Positions 4,089-48,942 of a stretch of DNA of 64,000 nt are shown one piece after another. The notes beneath the pieces were generated by a model, which saw only the letters and a program-made list of their open reading frames with translations, had not been told where the DNA came from and made no database searches. The position numbers and the translations under genes were made by a program. Position 1 is the stretch's first letter; every line of letters starts with the position of its first letter. Origin of the DNA: Candidatus Yanofskybacteria bacterium. GTDB taxonomy: Bacteria; Patescibacteriota; Minisyncoccia; 2-02-FULL-40-12; IGHO2-01-FULL-4-A. Where the stretch lies: NCBI GenBank assembly GCA_016181175.1, contig JACOZV010000001.1, forward strand, positions 4,643 through 68,642. Reading direction: 5' to 3'.

Positions 4089-4676
4089 CTATATTAGCTC
4101 TCGGATTTTTGCCAAATCCTCTCTGAATACCGGCTCCCAATTTATGTTGCGCAAAATTGCTGCCGGATGATAAACAATGAGGATTTTACGATCGGTTCCG
4201 TTTATCTTTTTGTTTATGATTTTTCCGTGATTCATGGACATGCTACCCTCAATACCTAAGCCGGTCATTGAAATGCGCCCGAGCAGAACTATCAACTTAG
4301 GACTTACGATATCAATCTCTTTTTCAAGAGCTGGACGAAACCTTTCTATCTCCTCCGGGGTTGGAGTGAGCGTCCCGCCTGATCCATCTTGCGGTCGATA
4401 CTTCACAATATTGCTTACGTAAAAATCTGATCTTTTCCAGCCGAGTTTTTCAAGTGTGGCATTAAGTAACTTGCCGGCACGTCCGACAAATGGCTTGCCC
4501 TGCACCTCTTCATCTTTACCAGGCGCCTCGCCGATTATCATCACCTCTTTATCCGGTGACCCGTCGTTAAAAACAAGCTTTTTTTCCGGATAAGCTTTTT
4601 TGATTGCATTAAAAATATATTGTAATTTTTGCTCTTTTGTCATTGATTTCGTGCTATTTTTCTGATATTCTATCAT
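4089..4676 (-). CDS. uracil-DNA glycosylase superfamily protein (family 4/5-like)
   Basis: GEAPG motif [14 protein letters not shown], and HPAA motif B. The ORF-track start at 4703 would overlap tRNA-Ile, so the internal ATG at 4676 is preferred. No N-terminal Fe-S cysteines seen. Confidence 0.7.
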
Positions 4677-4695
4677 GGAATCAATAATATTAAGA

Positions 4696-4766
4696 GGGCG
4701 CATAGTTTAGTGGTAAAACAGGGATCTGATAAGTCCCAGTCCCAGATTCGATTTCTGGTGCGCCCA
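4696..4766 (+). tRNA. tRNA-Ile (anticodon GAT)
   Basis: Hand-folded cloverleaf: acceptor GGGCGCA/TGCGCCC, D-stem GTTT/AAAC, anticodon loop CTGATAA, T-arm CCAGA-TTCGATT-TCTGG. Confidence 0.85.
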
Positions 4767-4900
4767 CAATGGTCATAATCCTGCTCCGCAGGATAAGTCC
4801 TACCGAATTTTTATACGTCCTCAACAGAGCTCGGACTAAAATTCGGGGTTGAAATGAAGCAGATTCATTTCAACCGCCTAGTGCGCGCACAAAAGTACTC

Positions 4901-45140: not shown

Positions 45141-45401
45141 TTATTTCAGAAGGGTTCTTTTCAAGGCTTGTTTGAGCTGATTCCTTCCAAAACCACTTTT
45201 TAGAAATACTTCTCTGGCTTTAGCATCTTGTTCGTTGATAAAGTACTCGTAATGAATAAGTTTTAATGGCCTACGATCTCTTGTTGATTTAACTTCACCG
45301 CGAGCGTGTTGCTGTAATCTGTTTTTAAGATTTGTAGTAAAACCAGCATAGAGTTTATTGTCTTTCAAGGATAGCAGGGTGTAAACGTAAAATCGTTCCA
45401 T
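45141..45401 (-). CDS. GIY-YIG nuclease-domain protein (stand-alone, 86 aa)
   Basis: FYVYTL...KLYAGFTTNLKNRLQQH...EYF matches the GIY-YIG core. Confidence 0.7.
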   Translation of the reverse strand: MERFYVYTLLSLKDNKLYAGFTTNLKNRLQQHARGEVKSTRDRRPLKLIHYEYFINEQDAKAREVFLKSGFGRNQLKQALKRTLLK

Positions 45402-46012: not shown

Positions 46013-46147
46013 GACAACCTCCTTAATTAAAGAACGTATATGACAAGAGTAGTTTTTTTAGCAAACAGTGTCAAATTAACAAATAGGTTCTAACCCGCTA
46101 TTACCTGTATAAAAAATAGATAAGTAAAAATTAGGTTTTCCGTCTTG

Positions 46148-46218
46148 AGCGGGTAAGGGGAATTGAACCCCTCTCTCGTCCTTGGCAAGGACGCGTAATG
46201 CCGATATACCATACCCGC
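46148..46218 (-). tRNA. tRNA-Gly (anticodon GCC)
   Basis: Acceptor GCGGGTA/TACCCGC, anticodon stem CGTCC/GGACG with loop TTGCCAA, T-arm AGGGG-TTCAATT-CCCCT. Confidence 0.8.
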
Positions 46219-46229
46219 GATTTCTTTAG

Positions 46230-46300
46230 TGCCGGAGGGCAGAATCGAACTGCCTTCAGACGCTCTTCAGGCGCCTGCTTTACCATTAAGCTACTCCGGC
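46230..46300 (-). tRNA. tRNA-Phe (anticodon GAA)
   Basis: Acceptor GCCGGAG/CTCCGGC, D-arm GCTT-AATGGTA-AAGC, loop CTGAAGA, T-arm GGCAG-TTCGATT-CTGCC. Confidence 0.8.
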
Positions 46301-46974
46301 CTTCTTGGTTTTTGTAGATAGGGAAGTCCTAGATATTTATCCTGTTCAATCGCGTCTTTTATTTTACGATACTTTCTATTAAGACGCAAACGATGAGAGG
46401 GATAATACATTGTAGAAAAAAGTTTCTTAGTGTCTCCCTTTACATATTCTAAATTCCATACCCCAGAGCCTTTATGTAGATAACCCATAACGCTATAATA
46501 TTGCGTTAATTTATTTTTAAGCCAAGTCAGGAAATCTAAACTTGCCGAAGCTATGGATAATTTAAAAGAGAAACTACTAGGCCACCTTTTGTCCCTAAAA
46601 GTATAAAAAGTGCCATCTCCATCAAAGAGACCTCTCAAAAAATCAGGAAAATAAAGTCGGGGTACTTTAACACGTTTTATAGTTTTAGATTTAGCCGGAG
46701 TTAGGTCAATATCATTTAAGAATCTGTAGATATATATGTCACCAAAAGTAATACAATAGTATCTTTTTTCCGTTTCACCACCTCTGGCATATTTACCGAT
46801 TTTGTTACTTAGATGTAGGGATTTTTTAAATGTTTCAATGAGTTGTAAATCTTTAGAAGAGAACCATATATGCCTTCTGTCTTTATTCAAACACCCATCG
46901 GCCGTAATAAGCCCGATCGCATATGCTAAATCATTACACCACATAGTGCTAACTTTTCTTTGAACTCGACCCAT
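46291..46974 (-). CDS. LAGLIDADG homing endonuclease, two-motif monomeric type, free-standing
   Basis: Motif 1 LAYAIGLITADGCL; motif 2 LRGLFDGDGTF. The 3' end overlaps the 5' end of tRNA-Phe by about 7 nt. Confidence 0.8.
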   Translation of the reverse strand: MGRVQRKVSTMWCNDLAYAIGLITADGCLNKDRRHIWFSSKDLQLIETFKKSLHLSNKIGKYARGGETEKRYYCITFGDIYIYRFLNDIDLTPAKSKTIKRVKVPRLYFPDFLRGLFDGDGTFYTFRDKRWPSSFSFKLSIASASLDFLTWLKNKLTQYYSVMGYLHKGSGVWNLEYVKGDTKKLFSTMYYPSHRLRLNRKYRKIKDAIEQDKYLGLPYLQKPRRPE

Positions 46975-47059
46975 AAAAATATTATATCAAAAATTTTAAA
47001 TAACTGCCACCGAGCTAAAAAATAAATCCAGATCGTTTAAGTTGTGATATAGTCCAAAT

Positions 47060-47108
47060 TGCTTCGGAAGAGGCAGGCGTTGTCAGTTCGATTCTGACCC
47101 GCGGCACA
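47060..47108 (+). other. tRNA 3'-half-like fragment (T-arm GTCAG-TTCGATT-CTGAC plus acceptor CCGCGGC-A); no matching 5' half found
   Basis: Read directly; the terminal 16 nt CTGACCCGCGGCACAG are repeated at 47286-47301. Confidence 0.45.
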
Positions 47109-47121
47109 GGCCATATTAATT

Positions 47122-47146
47122 AAAAAACCCACCGTGGGTTTTTTAA
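47122..47146. terminator. bidirectional terminator hairpin
   Basis: AAAAAACCCA-ccg-TGGGTTTTTT. Confidence 0.7.
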
Positions 47147-47285
47147 TTAATAAACCTCTGCGAGGTTGAATCGAACAAGTCGAGCCAAGCTCGACAAGTT
47201 CTACTGAATTTTTTAACGACTTGCCGTACTTTTGTACAAGGCAAGTCTAAAATTCTGGATTGAGCTGAAGCAGTTCAGCTCAATC

Positions 47286-47301
47286 GCTGACCCGCGGCAC
47301 A
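47286..47301 (+). repeat. second copy of CTGACCCGCGGCACAG
   Basis: Exact 16-nt match to 47086-47101. Confidence 0.8.
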
Positions 47302-47304
47302 GAC

Positions 47305-47340
47305 ATAACAAAAACCACCGAATCGGTGGTTTTTGTTATG
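47305..47340. terminator. bidirectional terminator with a 17-bp stem
   Basis: CATAACAAAAACCACCG-aat-CGGTGGTTTTTGTTATG. Confidence 0.8.
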
Positions 47341-47413
47341 GTGGGCGGTATAGGATTCGGACCTATGACCCTCTCAACGTCAATGAGATGCTCTACCACT
47401 GAGCTAACCGCCC
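47339..47413 (-). tRNA. tRNA-Val (anticodon GAC), with an encoded CCA
   Basis: Acceptor GGGCGGT/ACCGCCC, loop TTGACGT, T-arm ATAGG-TCCGAAT-CCTAT. Confidence 0.85.
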
Positions 47414-47460
47414 TCACAGTAGATCTTAAAAATAAGGATTTGTTTGAGGTTTTTCTACTG

Positions 47461-47544
47461 TGCGCGGGAGAGGATTCGAACCTCCATGCCCTTGCGAGCG
47501 CTACCACCTCAAGGTAGTGCGTCTACCAGTTTCGCCACCCGCGC
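47461..47544 (-). tRNA. tRNA-Leu (anticodon GAG), type II with a long variable arm
   Basis: Acceptor GCGCGGG/CCCGCGC, loop TTGAGGT, 15-nt variable arm, T-arm GGAGG-TTCGAAT-CCTCT. Confidence 0.85.
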
Positions 47545-48240: not shown

Positions 48241-48942
48241 GTGGTTCAGTTTAGTAAAAACTTACAAAAAAACGCGGCAATCGACCTCCGTAAGAAGGGA
48301 CTTTCGTATGCTGAAATTAAAAGAGAGATTTTAGTACCCAAATCTACCCTTTCCACGTGGCTTAAGAAGATAAAATTAAGCGAATCCCAGATCCAAAAAC
48401 TAAAAAATAGACGGCTTAAAATTGCCAGAGATAATTCCCAGAAAAAAATTTTAATAACCTCTCAAAAAATCGAAGAAATAAAAAATTCTTCAGCTAAAGA
48501 TTTAAAGAAAATTTCTAAAAGAGAACTTTGGTTGATGGGGGTTGTGCTTTATTGGAGAGAAAGACTTTTGCACAACAACGAAAGTGATTTGCGTAAAGGC
48601 GTCCGTTTCACAAGTTCCGATCCCAGTATTATAAAATTCTTTTTGAAGTGGTTACAAGATATTGGTCAGTTGGAAAAAGAAGAAATTGGATTTGACATCT
48701 TTCTTATTAATGGAAAAGTAGCAGCGGAAGCAATTGATTACTGGTCGCAAATTACTGACTTACCCAAGGACTATTTTCCCCGTGTTTATTTTCAAAAGAA
48801 CAGAAGAAAAAGAACCAAGAAAAAAAGTTCAAAAAGGGCGCATCACGGTTTATTAAGGGTGAGAATAAAAGCGAGTTCTATGCTGGCCAGACAAATTTCT
48901 GGCTGGGTAAAATCTATAGTTGATGAGATTGATAAACATTAA
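48241..48942 (+). CDS. hypothetical protein with an N-terminal helix-turn-helix (possibly mobile-element related); GTG start
   Basis: LSYAEIKREILVPKSTLSTWLKK HTH-like segment; basic KKRTKKK tract; no in-frame ATG near the ORF start; preceded by 270 bp of very AT-rich DNA. Confidence 0.3.
   Translation: MVQFSKNLQKNAAIDLRKKGLSYAEIKREILVPKSTLSTWLKKIKLSESQIQKLKNRRLKIARDNSQKKILITSQKIEEIKNSSAKDLKKISKRELWLMGVVLYWRERLLHNNESDLRKGVRFTSSDPSIIKFFLKWLQDIGQLEKEEIGFDIFLINGKVAAEAIDYWSQITDLPKDYFPRVYFQKNRRKRTKKKSSKRAHHGLLRVRIKASSMLARQISGWVKSIVDEIDKH

Follow-up and report, generated by a model that had tools for sequence, protein, structure and literature searches.

A free-standing LAGLIDADG endonuclease gene joined to tRNA-Phe(GAA) beside the probable remains of overwritten tRNA-Phe genes in Patescibacteria

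Introduction

How does an endonuclease gene come to share nucleotides with a tRNA gene on a bacterial chromosome, with pieces of further tRNA copies lying beside it? The question is raised by a locus within a 64-kb stretch of DNA, referred to here as the window, the source of which is a tiny groundwater bacterium. To our knowledge, nearly all homing endonucleases described as free-standing come from phages and organelles. A first-pass annotation had read the locus as the scar of intron or integrative-element activity at a tRNA gene, in which the endonuclease was left behind free-standing. Comparison of the window with related loci (denoted by L numbers) was utilized to evaluate this reading. 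The region is probably a free-standing LAGLIDADG cassette joined to the 5' end of tRNA-Phe(GAA), located beside the remains of two overwritten tRNA-Phe genes.

The endonuclease gene and its tRNA cluster

The gene lies within a run of tRNA genes on the minus strand, with the following features.

46147–46218, minus strand: tRNA-Gly(GCC), the second tRNA downstream of the cassette (ARAGORN; Rfam tRNA model, 58.4 bits)
46229–46300, minus strand: functional tRNA-Phe(GAA) of a type termed variant (ARAGORN; Rfam, 67.1 bits)
46291–46974, minus strand: free-standing, double-motif LAGLIDADG endonuclease ORF of 227 aa (Pfam, invariant Asp, fold)
46981–47010, minus strand: predicted promoter of the endonuclease gene with an extended -10 element (promoter scan, 10/12 matches plus TG)
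47004–47017, minus strand: tRNA D-arm-like motif TAGCTCGGTGGCAG, corresponding to tRNA-Phe nt 8–22, in the same sense as the ORF, where it overlaps the -35 box
47339–47413, minus strand: tRNA-Val(GAC), the upstream neighbour in a conserved Leu-Val-Phe-Gly cluster (tRNA calls, synteny)
47460–47544, minus strand: tRNA-Leu(GAG), here without an endonuclease gene in front (rplS ends 10 nt upstream)

The 227-aa ORF had been annotated as carrying two LAGLIDADG motifs, and this was confirmed. Pfam LAGLIDADG_3 matched the protein in two stretches (E=3e-11), the motifs being LAYAIGLITADG and LRGLFDGDG, and D26/G27 and D118–G121, which include the motif aspartates D26 and D118/D120, were unchanged in an alignment of 27 homologues. 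In total 670 homologues were found, and a look-up of the exact protein in the contig index gave no match. As a sequence search of the PDB returned only I-CreI at E=0.8, a fold search was needed to place the protein. The AlphaFold (AF2) model (pLDDT 91.6, pTM 0.89) had the expected tandem alpha-beta-beta-alpha-beta-beta-alpha fold, and its best Foldseek matches were I-Tsp061I (E=1.9e-11, TM 0.65/0.72), I-AniI and the I-OnuI family. Further structural neighbours were bI3, which like I-AniI is a maturase, and WhiA, a transcription factor. The predicted structure shows that the ORF encodes an intact LAGLIDADG nuclease fold in which the catalytic aspartates are kept.

The last codons of the ORF had also been said to overlap the 5' end of tRNA-Phe on the same strand. 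This overlap is 10 nt long: the first 10 nt of the tRNA provide the final codons of the ORF plus its stop, TAG, which is formed by tRNA nucleotides 8–10. No Rfam intron model covers the ORF, which is bounded by complete tRNA genes on both sides. The variant tRNA-Phe is distinguished by its D-arm GCTTAATGGTAAAGC, a variable loop TGAAG and an acceptor GCCGGAG, and the same type is linked to the closest relatives of the endonuclease (L028, L086, L088 and L089). The Leu-Val-Phe-Gly cluster is syntenic in L001, L002, L086 and L087. At the tRNA-Leu(GAG) position a Leu-type LAGLIDADG gene is present in the relatives L001, L003 and L028 and absent in the window.

The predicted promoter consists of a -35 element GTGGCA (47010–47005), an 18-nt spacer and TGnTATAAT with the -10 box at 46986–46981. 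The ATG of the endonuclease gene follows 6 nt past the -10 box which, with an inferred transcription start, implies a leaderless mRNA; the same spacing between TATAAT and ATG occurs in L006, L007, L018, L087, L088 and L089. D-arm motifs of the TAGCTCGGTGGCAG type (at most 1 mismatch) were found upstream of the ORF in 9/32 Phe-type loci vs 0/342 control windows, and the motif is additionally present in L086–L089. No terminator follows the ORF. The gene's own extended -10 promoter, the missing terminator and the overlap with the tRNA together make co-transcription of the ORF with tRNA-Phe plausible.

Remains of tRNA-Phe upstream of the gene

Between the promoter and tRNA-Val the window holds two tRNA fragments on the opposite strand, termed relic 1 and relic 2, each with a palindrome behind it.

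47045–47066, plus strand: group I intron tail, the last 22 nt or more, running from the P7 3' strand GATATAGTCC to omega-G (BLAST, alignment)
47067–47106, plus strand: relic 1, corresponding to the whole 3' exon, nt 34–73, of a tRNA-Phe of standard type (sequence read)
47114–47152, no strand assigned: perfect palindrome with 19-nt arms and A6/T6 flanks, terminator-like on both strands and belonging to relic 1 (repeat search, fold)
47153–47286, no strand assigned: hairpin-rich filler (hairpins at 47166–47208, 47218–47247 and 47258–47285)
47275–47302, plus strand: relic 2, the stump of an older tRNA-Phe 3' end (repeat search, BLAST)
47304–47340, no strand assigned: perfect palindrome with 18-nt arms, terminator-like, common to relic 2 and the convergent tRNA-Val (repeat search)

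Relic 1 reads GAAGA GGCAG GCGTT GTCAG TTCGATT CTGAC CCGCGGC A. Its T-arm and acceptor, at 47082–47106, are the orphan plus-strand tRNA 3' part recognised on first pass; neither ARAGORN nor the covariance model, even at E<=10, called a tRNA at the relic, nor was a complete tRNA found across 47041–47108. In BLAST, positions 47045–47111 of the window matched an intron tail and 3' exon at 4403–4469 of L006 with 91% identity over 67 nt. L006 lies on one contig with L001, and here a group I intron of 216 nt interrupts an intact tRNA-Phe after U33, the intron being scored by Rfam Intron_gpI (RF00028) at 70.5 bits (E=2.5e-17). Comparison with relatives thus supplied the intact gene and bore out the earlier proposal of a scar involving an intron at a tRNA gene. 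Judged by sequence similarity, the orphan tRNA part is a tRNA-Phe 3' exon still joined to a group I intron tail. Except at 1 nt, the exon agrees with the functional tRNA-Phe of L127, which has no endonuclease gene.

Little else of the intron-containing gene is left. The P3–P9 catalytic core is missing from the window, where just the stretch from the P7 3' strand to omega-G is retained. RF00028 had no match across the 64 kb at the gathering threshold and none at E<=10 around the endonuclease and tRNA region. The missing tRNA-Phe 5' half was sought with up to 4 mismatches and not found in the 64-kb window, and three intron-core motifs searched at the same tolerance gave chance-level matches only. 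Rfam at E<=10 over 45–49 kb returned weak chance matches (IS128, psRNA14) on the hairpin/terminator region only. The inverted relic is common to four genomes, namely those of the window, L028, L088 and L089.

The end of relic 1 recurs downstream, as had been annotated with coordinates about 1 nt off. The 16-mer CTGACCCGCGGCACAG is present in exactly two copies in the 64 kb (47094–47109 and 47287–47302, spacing 193), where shuffled sequence gives 0.03 expected matches at the search setting of up to 2 mismatches. The second copy forms relic 2, in which the exact 16-mer (T-stem 3' strand, acceptor 3' strand and ACAG) follows a degenerate T-loop. In BLAST, relic 2 was 88% identical over 26 nt to the 3' ends of tRNA-Phe in L045 and L062, and its placement fits the tRNA-Phe-terminator-tRNA-Val layout of L003.

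A bidirectional terminator had been proposed after each copy of the 16-mer. Both copies are indeed followed by perfect palindromes flanked by A-runs and T-runs; their role as terminators is suggested by shape. A simple terminator scan flagged neither long palindrome because the T-run sits inside the stem. An equivalent hairpin is located directly 3' of tRNA-Phe or the relic in L127 and L028. The filler between the palindromes has a fold z-score of -12.9 and no homologue by BLAST among 89 loci, and the 3' arm of its last hairpin (47258–47285) is the T-loop part of relic 2. The filler weakly resembles a hairpin in the tRNA-Ile/tRNA-Ala spacer at 4836–4877, the sole match.

Survey of homologous loci

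In 79 out of 80 Patescibacteria genome loci a tRNA on the same strand abuts or overlaps the end of the ORF; in the single exception the contig ends at the ORF end. The identity of the linked tRNA follows that of the protein, being tRNA-Phe(GAA) at 49% protein identity or more and tRNA-Leu(GAG) at 43–48%. About 29 of 33 Phe-type cassettes and all Leu-type cassettes are without an intron, and the gene is paired with an intron-containing tRNA-Phe in two loci (L006 and L025). The proposal that the endonuclease was left free-standing by intron decay is not supported on these counts, as the family is free-standing and 5' of tRNA-Phe or tRNA-Leu in the 79 loci and most of the linked tRNAs have no intron.

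Many cassettes have an upstream 5' fragment of the same tRNA that overlaps the promoter. At Leu-type loci the sequence TTGGTATACGCTATTACCTTGAGG, which spans the tRNA-Leu D-loop to the anticodon loop, was found upstream with 6 or fewer mismatches out of 24 in 32/49 loci, the control minimum being 8. The acceptor 5' strand of the tRNA is also kept upstream in three Leu-type loci, and further tRNA debris occurs near the cassettes of L018, L045 and L086. In the searched literature, the coverage of which was incomplete, free-standing LAGLIDADG genes linked to tRNA genes were not found described for CPR bacteria.

The equivalent position before tRNA-Gly, tRNA-Val and tRNA-Arg appears to be taken by another family of ORFs, which carry an HTH domain at the N-terminus.

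Variation among relatives and alternative explanations

Four states of the locus were observed. L127 has an inverted tRNA-Phe without an endonuclease gene; L003 has an inverted tRNA-Phe and an endonuclease gene; the window, L028, L088 and L089 have the inverted relic and the cassette; and in L001, L002, L086 and L087 the cassette is co-oriented. The gene is accordingly polymorphic for presence and absence at a fixed genomic site among relatives.

A T-loop allele conferring immunity was considered and was not borne out. Among the first 43 tRNA-Phe genes, TTCAATT was found in 6/6 alleles without an intact endonuclease gene and in 0/31 with one (Fisher 4e-7). A pattern scan of metagenome contigs yielded 35 further, independent endonuclease-less tRNA-Phe alleles, of which 21 had TTCGATT and 2 TTCAATT. 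As the association was not repeated in this second sample, the first result is attributed to sampling or phylogeny. The same test on tRNA-Leu T-loops gave no discrimination.

The variation bears on whether the gene is a domesticated host factor, inherited vertically with the tRNA cluster, in which case the tRNA fragments would be ordinary rearrangement debris of a recombination-prone cluster. Possible roles are those of a tRNA-Phe group I intron maturase, a tRNA-operon regulator resembling WhiA or a housekeeping nuclease. The position of the gene is invariant across 79 loci, and between the same genomes the endonuclease is 70–80% identical, above RluD and above ribosomal protein L19 (49–59%), a degree of conservation that host function under purifying selection could explain equally well. 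The structural neighbours named above include maturases and WhiA, L006 and L025 pair the gene with an intron-containing tRNA-Phe, and the tRNA-like motifs found upstream coincide in part with promoters and might act as operators. However, both catalytic aspartates are invariant, while in WhiA and bI3 they have been lost, and most of the linked tRNAs have no intron. The gene is also missing in front of tRNA-Phe at L127 and seven other loci (including L045, L059, L060, L062, L074 and L084), is interrupted by an internal stop in L034 and truncated in L028. For one close pair, L002/L087, synonymous sites point to a transfer more recent than host divergence: 172/211 synonymous third positions (82%) are identical in the endonuclease gene vs 58% in rplS and rluD. 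In L086 and L087 its composition is atypical, third positions being AT-rich in the endonuclease gene and C-rich in host genes. We regard domestication as unlikely.

Relic 1 could instead be functional, serving as a tRNA-Phe 3' half joined in trans by a split group I intron, as a small RNA or as an operator of the endonuclease gene. Between the window and L088 it is conserved at about 95%, equal to the functional tRNA and above the 69% at synonymous sites of the ORF, and simple neutral debris does not account for this. It retains its own terminator-like hairpin and, in L028, both strands of its T-arm have changed with pairing kept. That changed T-arm is, however, the one of L028's own functional tRNA, so that gene conversion between inverted repeats suffices without function. 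In L028 the relic also abuts the ORF start and leaves no room for a promoter. An intact tRNA-Phe(GAA) is located about 750 nt away in the window, the roughly 22 nt of remaining intron are without a catalytic core, and neither a 5' exon nor an intron core is found in the 64 kb. Function of the relic is consequently considered very improbable.

The first-pass annotation had attributed the 16-mers to attachment-site duplication, that is, attL/attR-type copies made by an integrase inserting a small element at a tRNA 3' end. An exact 16-nt direct repeat at this end does occupy the usual position of an att core, but no integrase or recombinase ORF is present in 44.5–49 kb, which argues against such a duplication. 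Moreover, the 177 nt between the copies are non-coding hairpins without a homologue, neither copy is part of an intact tRNA, the left one running into the intron tail as a truncated pseudogene, and relatives show states of whole-gene replacement, not island insertion. There is hardly any likelihood left for this explanation. Least credible of all are chimeric joins in the assembly since, even though the sequence comes from a MAG and repeats are usual in tRNA clusters, the layout of inverted relic, promoter, ORF and variant tRNA recurs in four independent assemblies from different studies (window, L028, L088 and L089).

Proposed replacement of tRNA genes

The best reading of these comparisons is that the cassette is a free-standing homing endonuclease that would travel with its own tRNA and overwrite resident tRNA genes. 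The enzyme would cut cognate tRNA genes that have no cassette, and repair from a donor would copy in the cassette with its promoter, its endonuclease gene and an entire replacement tRNA. Portable homology would be provided by the sequence of the tRNA, and where joins are imprecise, pieces of the 5' part would remain upstream and stumps of the 3' part either downstream or in inverted orientation. The history of this locus may have begun with a tRNA-Phe convergent with tRNA-Val, the arrangement of L127 and L003, that was replaced by an intron-containing copy, leaving relic 2. An inverted cassette of endonuclease gene and variant tRNA-Phe may then have removed the 5' exon and most of the intron of that copy, leaving relic 1; a handful of loci from metagenome assemblies underlies this reconstructed order. 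If ORF and tRNAs are co-transcribed, cleavage by RNase P at tRNA position 1 would remove the stop codon of the ORF and keep the level of enzyme low.

More tentatively, and with less confidence than in the reading of the locus itself, we suggest that these loci represent an undescribed chromosomal selfish element of Patescibacteria, a 'tRNA replacement cassette'. It would be made up of a leaderless LAGLIDADG gene, a complete replacement tRNA (Phe-GAA or Leu-GAG) within which the ORF ends and, upstream, a piece of that tRNA doubling as promoter and portable homology arm. The HTH family and the throttling of expression by RNase P would belong to the same proposal. Such a cassette could overwrite the cognate tRNA gene in any species, whatever the genomic context.

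Implications

Throughout much of a major bacterial phylum, one endonuclease family appears to be fixed to two specific tRNA genes, and its footprints (5'-half relics, 3' stumps and an intron tail) would record the serial replacement of an essential single-copy gene. Homing via tRNA homology would account for the pseudo-tRNAs and pieces of tRNA seen close to the cassettes in the tRNA clusters of Patescibacteria, and the enzymes would be natural LAGLIDADG endonucleases with specificity for tRNA genes. L006 and L025 would then illustrate, on bacterial chromosomes, the stage that precedes the merging of an endonuclease gene with a group I intron into a mobile intron. For annotation, the ORF is to be expected in these genomes before tRNA-Phe and before tRNA-Leu(GAG), and halves of tRNAs nearby would be relics rather than split genes.

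Comparison with known systems

The closest concept is intronless homing (reviewed in PMC3984707), for which SegB of the T4 tRNA gene cluster is an example by name (PMC13096335). In both SegB and the cassette the endonuclease gene is outside any intron or intein and beside conserved tRNA genes, and spread of the T4-like free-standing endonucleases is likewise presumed to occur via cleavage of gene-less alleles and co-conversion of neighbours (PMC3984707). SegB, however, is a GIY-YIG enzyme of a phage genome, whereas the cassette encodes a double-motif LAGLIDADG enzyme on bacterial chromosomes. Unlike in SegB, there is a physical fusion between the ORF and one specific tRNA, Phe or Leu, from which the ORF takes its stop codon. 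A 5' fragment of this tRNA is often present upstream in the cassette, and we know of no such fragment upstream of Seg enzyme genes.

In collaborative homing a free-standing endonuclease acts together with a group I intron that has no ORF (PMC3984707). The tail of such an intron survives in the window, but the linked tRNA-Phe there is intronless and the 22-nt dead tail lies on the opposite side, so that the intron-containing gene would here be a victim rather than a partner. The pairing characteristic of collaborative homing is found in the relatives L006 and L025.

LAGLIDADG endonucleases have been described within insertions and introns of CPR 16S and 23S rRNA genes (PMC11270868, which makes no mention of tRNA; also PMC8172020). 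The phylum and the superfamily are the same and highly conserved RNA genes would be targeted in both cases. The rRNA-associated genes, however, lie inside the insertions, whereas those of the cassettes are free-standing, with their own promoter, and outside the tRNA.

Bacterial tRNA group I introns include those of cyanobacterial tRNA-Leu(UAA) and tRNA-fMet and of proteobacterial tRNA-Ile and tRNA-Arg. Like these, the L001 intron is small and ORF-less, interrupts the anticodon loop and matches RF00028. Unlike in these, the host gene is tRNA-Phe(GAA) with an inferred splice site after U33, and the window holds a dead 3' tail only. No description of a group I intron in a bacterial tRNA-Phe was found in the searched literature, and CPR tRNAs are stated, with no more detail, to be able to carry group I introns (PMC8172020).

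Finally, genomic islands at tRNA genes resemble the window in having a duplicated tRNA 3'-end segment beside a tRNA locus. Unlike at such islands, the window is without an integrase or an island, the duplicated fragments across the family are mainly 5' parts located upstream, and the resident tRNA gene would be replaced rather than restored.

Organization of the endonuclease locus

The window locus, from a Candidatus Yanofskybacteria (Patescibacteria/CPR) MAG, is composed of the features below. L numbers denote loci from related genomes (L001 and L006 are the same contig), and the intron tail and relic 1 were delimited by alignment to L001/L006.

46147-46218, minus (ORF strand): tRNA-Gly(GCC), ARAGORN and Rfam
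46229-46300, minus (ORF strand): tRNA-Phe(GAA), ARAGORN and Rfam
46291-46974, minus: LAGLIDADG ORF, 227 aa (Pfam LAGLIDADG_3, E=3e-11)
47004-47017: motif of tRNA-Phe nt 8-22, overlapping the -35 box GTGGCA of the endonuclease promoter
47045-47066, plus: dead group I intron tail
47067-47106, plus: relic 1, a complete tRNA-Phe 3' exon (nt 34-73)
47114-47152: perfect palindrome with A/T-run flanks, after the first 16-mer copy
47275-47302, plus: relic 2, remnant of a further tRNA-Phe 3' end, shorter than relic 1 (second 16-mer and roughly 10 degenerate T-loop nt)
47304-47340: perfect palindrome with A/T-run flanks, after the second 16-mer copy

All features described in the first-pass annotation were thus recovered: the ORF, both tRNAs, two 16-mers and a palindrome after each copy. 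The 16-mer CTGACCCGCGGCACAG had exactly two copies in 64 kb (47094-47109 and 47287-47302), with a shuffle expectation of 0.03 matches at a search setting of up to 2 mismatches. The ORF product has the same sequence as NCBI protein HYT61_00305, encoded on a contig of 374,535 bp, and both motif aspartates were invariant in a comparison of 27 homologues. The best structural match of its AlphaFold model (pLDDT 91.6) was I-Tsp061I (E=1.9e-11), with I-AniI and the I-OnuI family as the next LAGLIDADG homing endonucleases; maturase bI3 and the regulator WhiA were also among the matches. The last codons of the ORF, CCG GAG TAG, constitute nucleotides 2-10 of tRNA-Phe. Its promoter has an extended -10, and the 6 nt between the end of TATAAT and the endonuclease ATG, a spacing common to 7 loci, imply that the mRNA would be leaderless.

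Three near-perfect hairpins lie within 130 nt at 47153-47286, a segment for which no homologue was found in the loci fetched by that point. The last of them, 47258-47285, repeats the T-loop portion of relic 2 in inverted form and, speculatively, resembles fold-back filler from break repair. It is similar (81% over 42 nt, common loop GAAGCAG) to hairpin 4836-4877 in the tRNA-Ile(GAT)/tRNA-Ala(TGC) spacer, and the two may be copies of one small hairpin element that recurs close to tRNA genes. A second nuclease-family gene near the tRNA cluster, a stand-alone 86-aa GIY-YIG ORF (45141-45401, minus, Pfam E=5.5e-14), is located roughly 750 nt past tRNA-Gly, beyond a dCMP deaminase gene.

Linkage of the endonuclease gene to tRNA

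The endonuclease gene had been proposed to be stranded at this site, which a homologue scan of one genome per species contradicted. The scan returned 80 loci, all from Patescibacteria-type MAGs, and a same-strand tRNA abutted or overlapped the ORF end wherever sequence continued past the ORF. ARAGORN was blank at 5 loci, all contig-end truncations; a tRNA start was visible in 4 of these and the fifth stops at the ORF. Homologues at least 49% identical to the window protein were joined to tRNA-Phe(GAA) (Phe-type loci) and those 43-48% identical to tRNA-Leu(GAG) (Leu-type loci). In the tRNA-Phe group an overlap of 10 nt was commonest, with tRNA nt 8-10 forming the stop codon. The conserved C-terminus LQKxR of the homologues stops at tRNA position 1, and the stop codon comes from whichever frame follows. 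The position of the endonuclease gene beside a tRNA is not an accident of the window locus.

Fragments of tRNA were also found upstream of the ORF. In Leu-type loci this fragment is TTGGTATACGCTATTACCTTGAGG, which corresponds to the D-loop-to-anticodon-loop part of tRNA-Leu(GAG) and was present with at most 6/24 mismatches in 32 of 49 loci (control minimum 8); about 8 further loci appear to hold indel variants, and the acceptor 5' strand is also retained in L045, L046 and L063. It is placed either just before the TATAAT box, giving a TTGGTA -35, or just after it as a 5' leader. The shorter Phe-type analogue, (TA)GCTCrGTGGTAG, corresponds to tRNA-Phe nt 8-22 and occurred in 9/32 Phe-type loci compared with 0/342 control windows, as well as in L086-L089. 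Based on the upstream fragments, the promoter and the linkage, a tRNA 5' fragment and a promoter therefore precede the endonuclease gene in the cassette, and an entire tRNA follows it. Across L036-L085 the 24-nt Leu-type fragment lay roughly 5-125 nt ahead of the ORF start and was more uniform between species than the functional tRNA-Leu genes adjoining, which could be on account of a role as promoter, operator or homology arm.

The orphan tRNA half and group I introns in tRNA-Phe

The identity of the orphan tRNA half was settled by two relatives with a syntenic locus, in the order RluD, L19, tRNA-Leu, tRNA-Val, endonuclease gene, tRNA-Phe. In L001/L006 the ORF, encoding a 77% identical protein, enters a tRNA-Phe with acceptor GCCGCGG. 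Within this tRNA lies a group I intron of 216 nt (RF00028 of Rfam at 70.5 bits, E=2.5e-17). The P1 U-G pair and terminal G suggest splicing after U33 (...CCCU / intron ...CUUCG / GAAGAGG...). Window positions 47045-47111 aligned to the end of this intron and the 3' exon (BLAST, 91% over 67 nt), and the two pieces 47045-47066 and 47067-47106 were defined accordingly. The first-pass annotation had interpreted the locus as a scar of intron or integrative-element activity with attachment-site duplication; the intron tail and 3' exon bear out a tRNA-gene scar connected with an intron, while the att duplication was not upheld. Rfam covariance models called neither tRNA nor intron at 47045-47106. Neither a 5' exon nor an intron core was found elsewhere within the 64-kb window. 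In L045 and L062 the tRNA-Phe 3' ends matched relic 2 (88% over 26 nt), whose position is the exact end of the functional tRNA-Phe in L003 (tRNA-Phe, hairpin, convergent tRNA-Val).

At four loci the tRNA-Phe(GAA) anticodon loop was interrupted by a group I intron (216-243 nt, no ORF), with a probable splice site after U33:

L001/L006, 3676-3965
L025, 4155-4450
L069, 5619-5935
L076, 853-1155, minus

A LAGLIDADG gene is located directly upstream in two of the four and is absent there in the other two. A further relative may likewise have an interrupted tRNA: at L022 5748-6266 the ARAGORN call is a tRNA-Tyr(GTA) whose intron measures 429 nt.

States and history of the locus

Four states of the locus were seen among relatives:

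State A (L127): tRNA-Val, hairpin and inverted standard tRNA-Phe, without endonuclease gene
State B (L003): inverted tRNA-Phe preceded by the endonuclease gene
State C (window, L088, L089, L028): inverted relic (intron tail and 3' exon), then promoter, endonuclease gene and tRNA-Phe in opposite orientation
State D (L001, L002, L086, L087): entire cassette co-oriented with tRNA-Val

The 3' 40 nt of the L127 tRNA-Phe differ from relic 1 by one base. An unusual variant tRNA-Phe (D-arm GCTTAATGGTAAAGC, variable loop TGAAG) follows the endonuclease gene in all state-C genomes and in L086, L021 and L029, unlike the relics, which are of the standard type; the variant also occurs natively in L113, where the endonuclease gene is missing. 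The simplest reading of the window locus is serial overwriting, in an order that we infer as follows. An intron-containing copy, arriving with a hairpin of its own and some 130 nt of filler, would first have replaced the original inverted tRNA-Phe, leaving relic 2. An inverted cassette of endonuclease and variant tRNA would next have removed the 5' exon and most of the intron of this copy, leaving relic 1. Comparable debris was found in L018 (hairpin flanked by two 3' stumps), L045 (tRNA-Phe 5' and 3' pieces and a tRNA-Val piece) and L086 (16-nt 5' piece). The L045 pieces lie at 4440-4860 in a tRNA cluster of an Azambacteria MAG and include a tRNA-Val 3' relic, the tRNA-Phe 5' piece GCCGCGGTAGC and a tRNA-Phe relic from D-stem to 3' end with a ruined anticodon; the tRNA-Phe of L045 has no endonuclease gene in front.

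Members of a second ORF family (roughly 220-235 aa) show an HTH domain at the N-terminus (Pfam HTH_23/CENP-B_N, weak matches) and a central motif, FLAGxxLYWGEG, that by eye resembles a single LAGLIDADG motif:

Window, 48241-48942, plus
L001, 4124-4831
L002, 2856-3518
L003, 2220-2891, minus

It was also present in L014, L025, L028, L030, L040, L059, L060, L076, L077, L088 and L127. In relatives the ORF lies directly upstream of tRNA-Gly(GCC), tRNA-Val(GAC) or tRNA-Arg(GCG). The window member is 24-31% identical; with RER for GEG and no tRNA downstream, it may have been displaced or be in decay.

Probable mobility of the cassette

Judged from sequence, the endonuclease and tRNA probably form a homing cassette, with predicted nuclease activity and spread. 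Some relatives have the endonuclease gene and others lack it at the same site, locus orientation varies, and degenerate copies occur in L034 (internal stop) and L028 (truncated N-terminus). The L028 tRNA is moreover chimeric: its D-arm is of the variant kind, and its T-arm and acceptor are those of the L028 relic. Between L002 and L087, the only close genome pair available, synonymous third-position identity was 172/211 (82%) in the endonuclease gene compared with 58% in rplS and rluD, and endonuclease third positions are AT-rich even beside C-rich host genes. In L086 and L087 third-position C is about 0.2 in the endonuclease gene while reaching 0.35-0.47 in rplS, a compositional mismatch with the host. 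A domesticated rather than mobile endonuclease appears unlikely, even if the protein is 70-80% conserved against 49-59% for L19 in the same genomes and the position of the gene never varies. The state-C relic likewise favors domestication, being about 95% conserved against 69% at synonymous sites (window/L088), which neutrality does not account for; gene conversion between inverted tRNA segments, visible in L028, may explain part of this, and the relic is possibly an operator or homology arm.

With regard to the target of the putative homing cassette, the T-loop TTCAATT was found in 6/6 endonuclease-less intronless tRNA-Phe genes and 0/31 with an intact adjoining gene in a first sample (Fisher 4e-7). 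Since relic 2 and the L018 stump also begin right after the T-loop, the pseudo-palindromic T-arm was suspected. It was rejected, the association being a sampling effect: an independent metagenome scan with a pattern on the acceptor stem only gave 35 further endonuclease-less tRNA-Phe genes, of which 21 had TTCGATT and 2 TTCAATT.

Comparison with known systems

In the literature searched, of which coverage was incomplete, no description was found of a group I intron in bacterial tRNA-Phe, of tRNA-linked free-standing LAGLIDADG cassettes, or of the tRNA-half relics upstream; a passing remark in one paper states that group I introns can occur in CPR tRNAs (PMC8172020). The cassettes are apparently an undescribed phylum-wide family of which the window is a member. 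Among the nearest systems are the LAGLIDADG genes of CPR rRNA genes, which are intron-encoded and reported without mention of tRNA (PMC11270868), and intronless homing in phages, whose free-standing endonucleases include SegB of the T4 tRNA cluster. L006 and L025 have the same layout as a third such system, collaborative homing, in which a free-standing endonuclease is paired with an ORF-less intron (PMC3984707). The family would be a variation on the theme of the free-standing homing endonuclease, with putative nuclease activity and spread.
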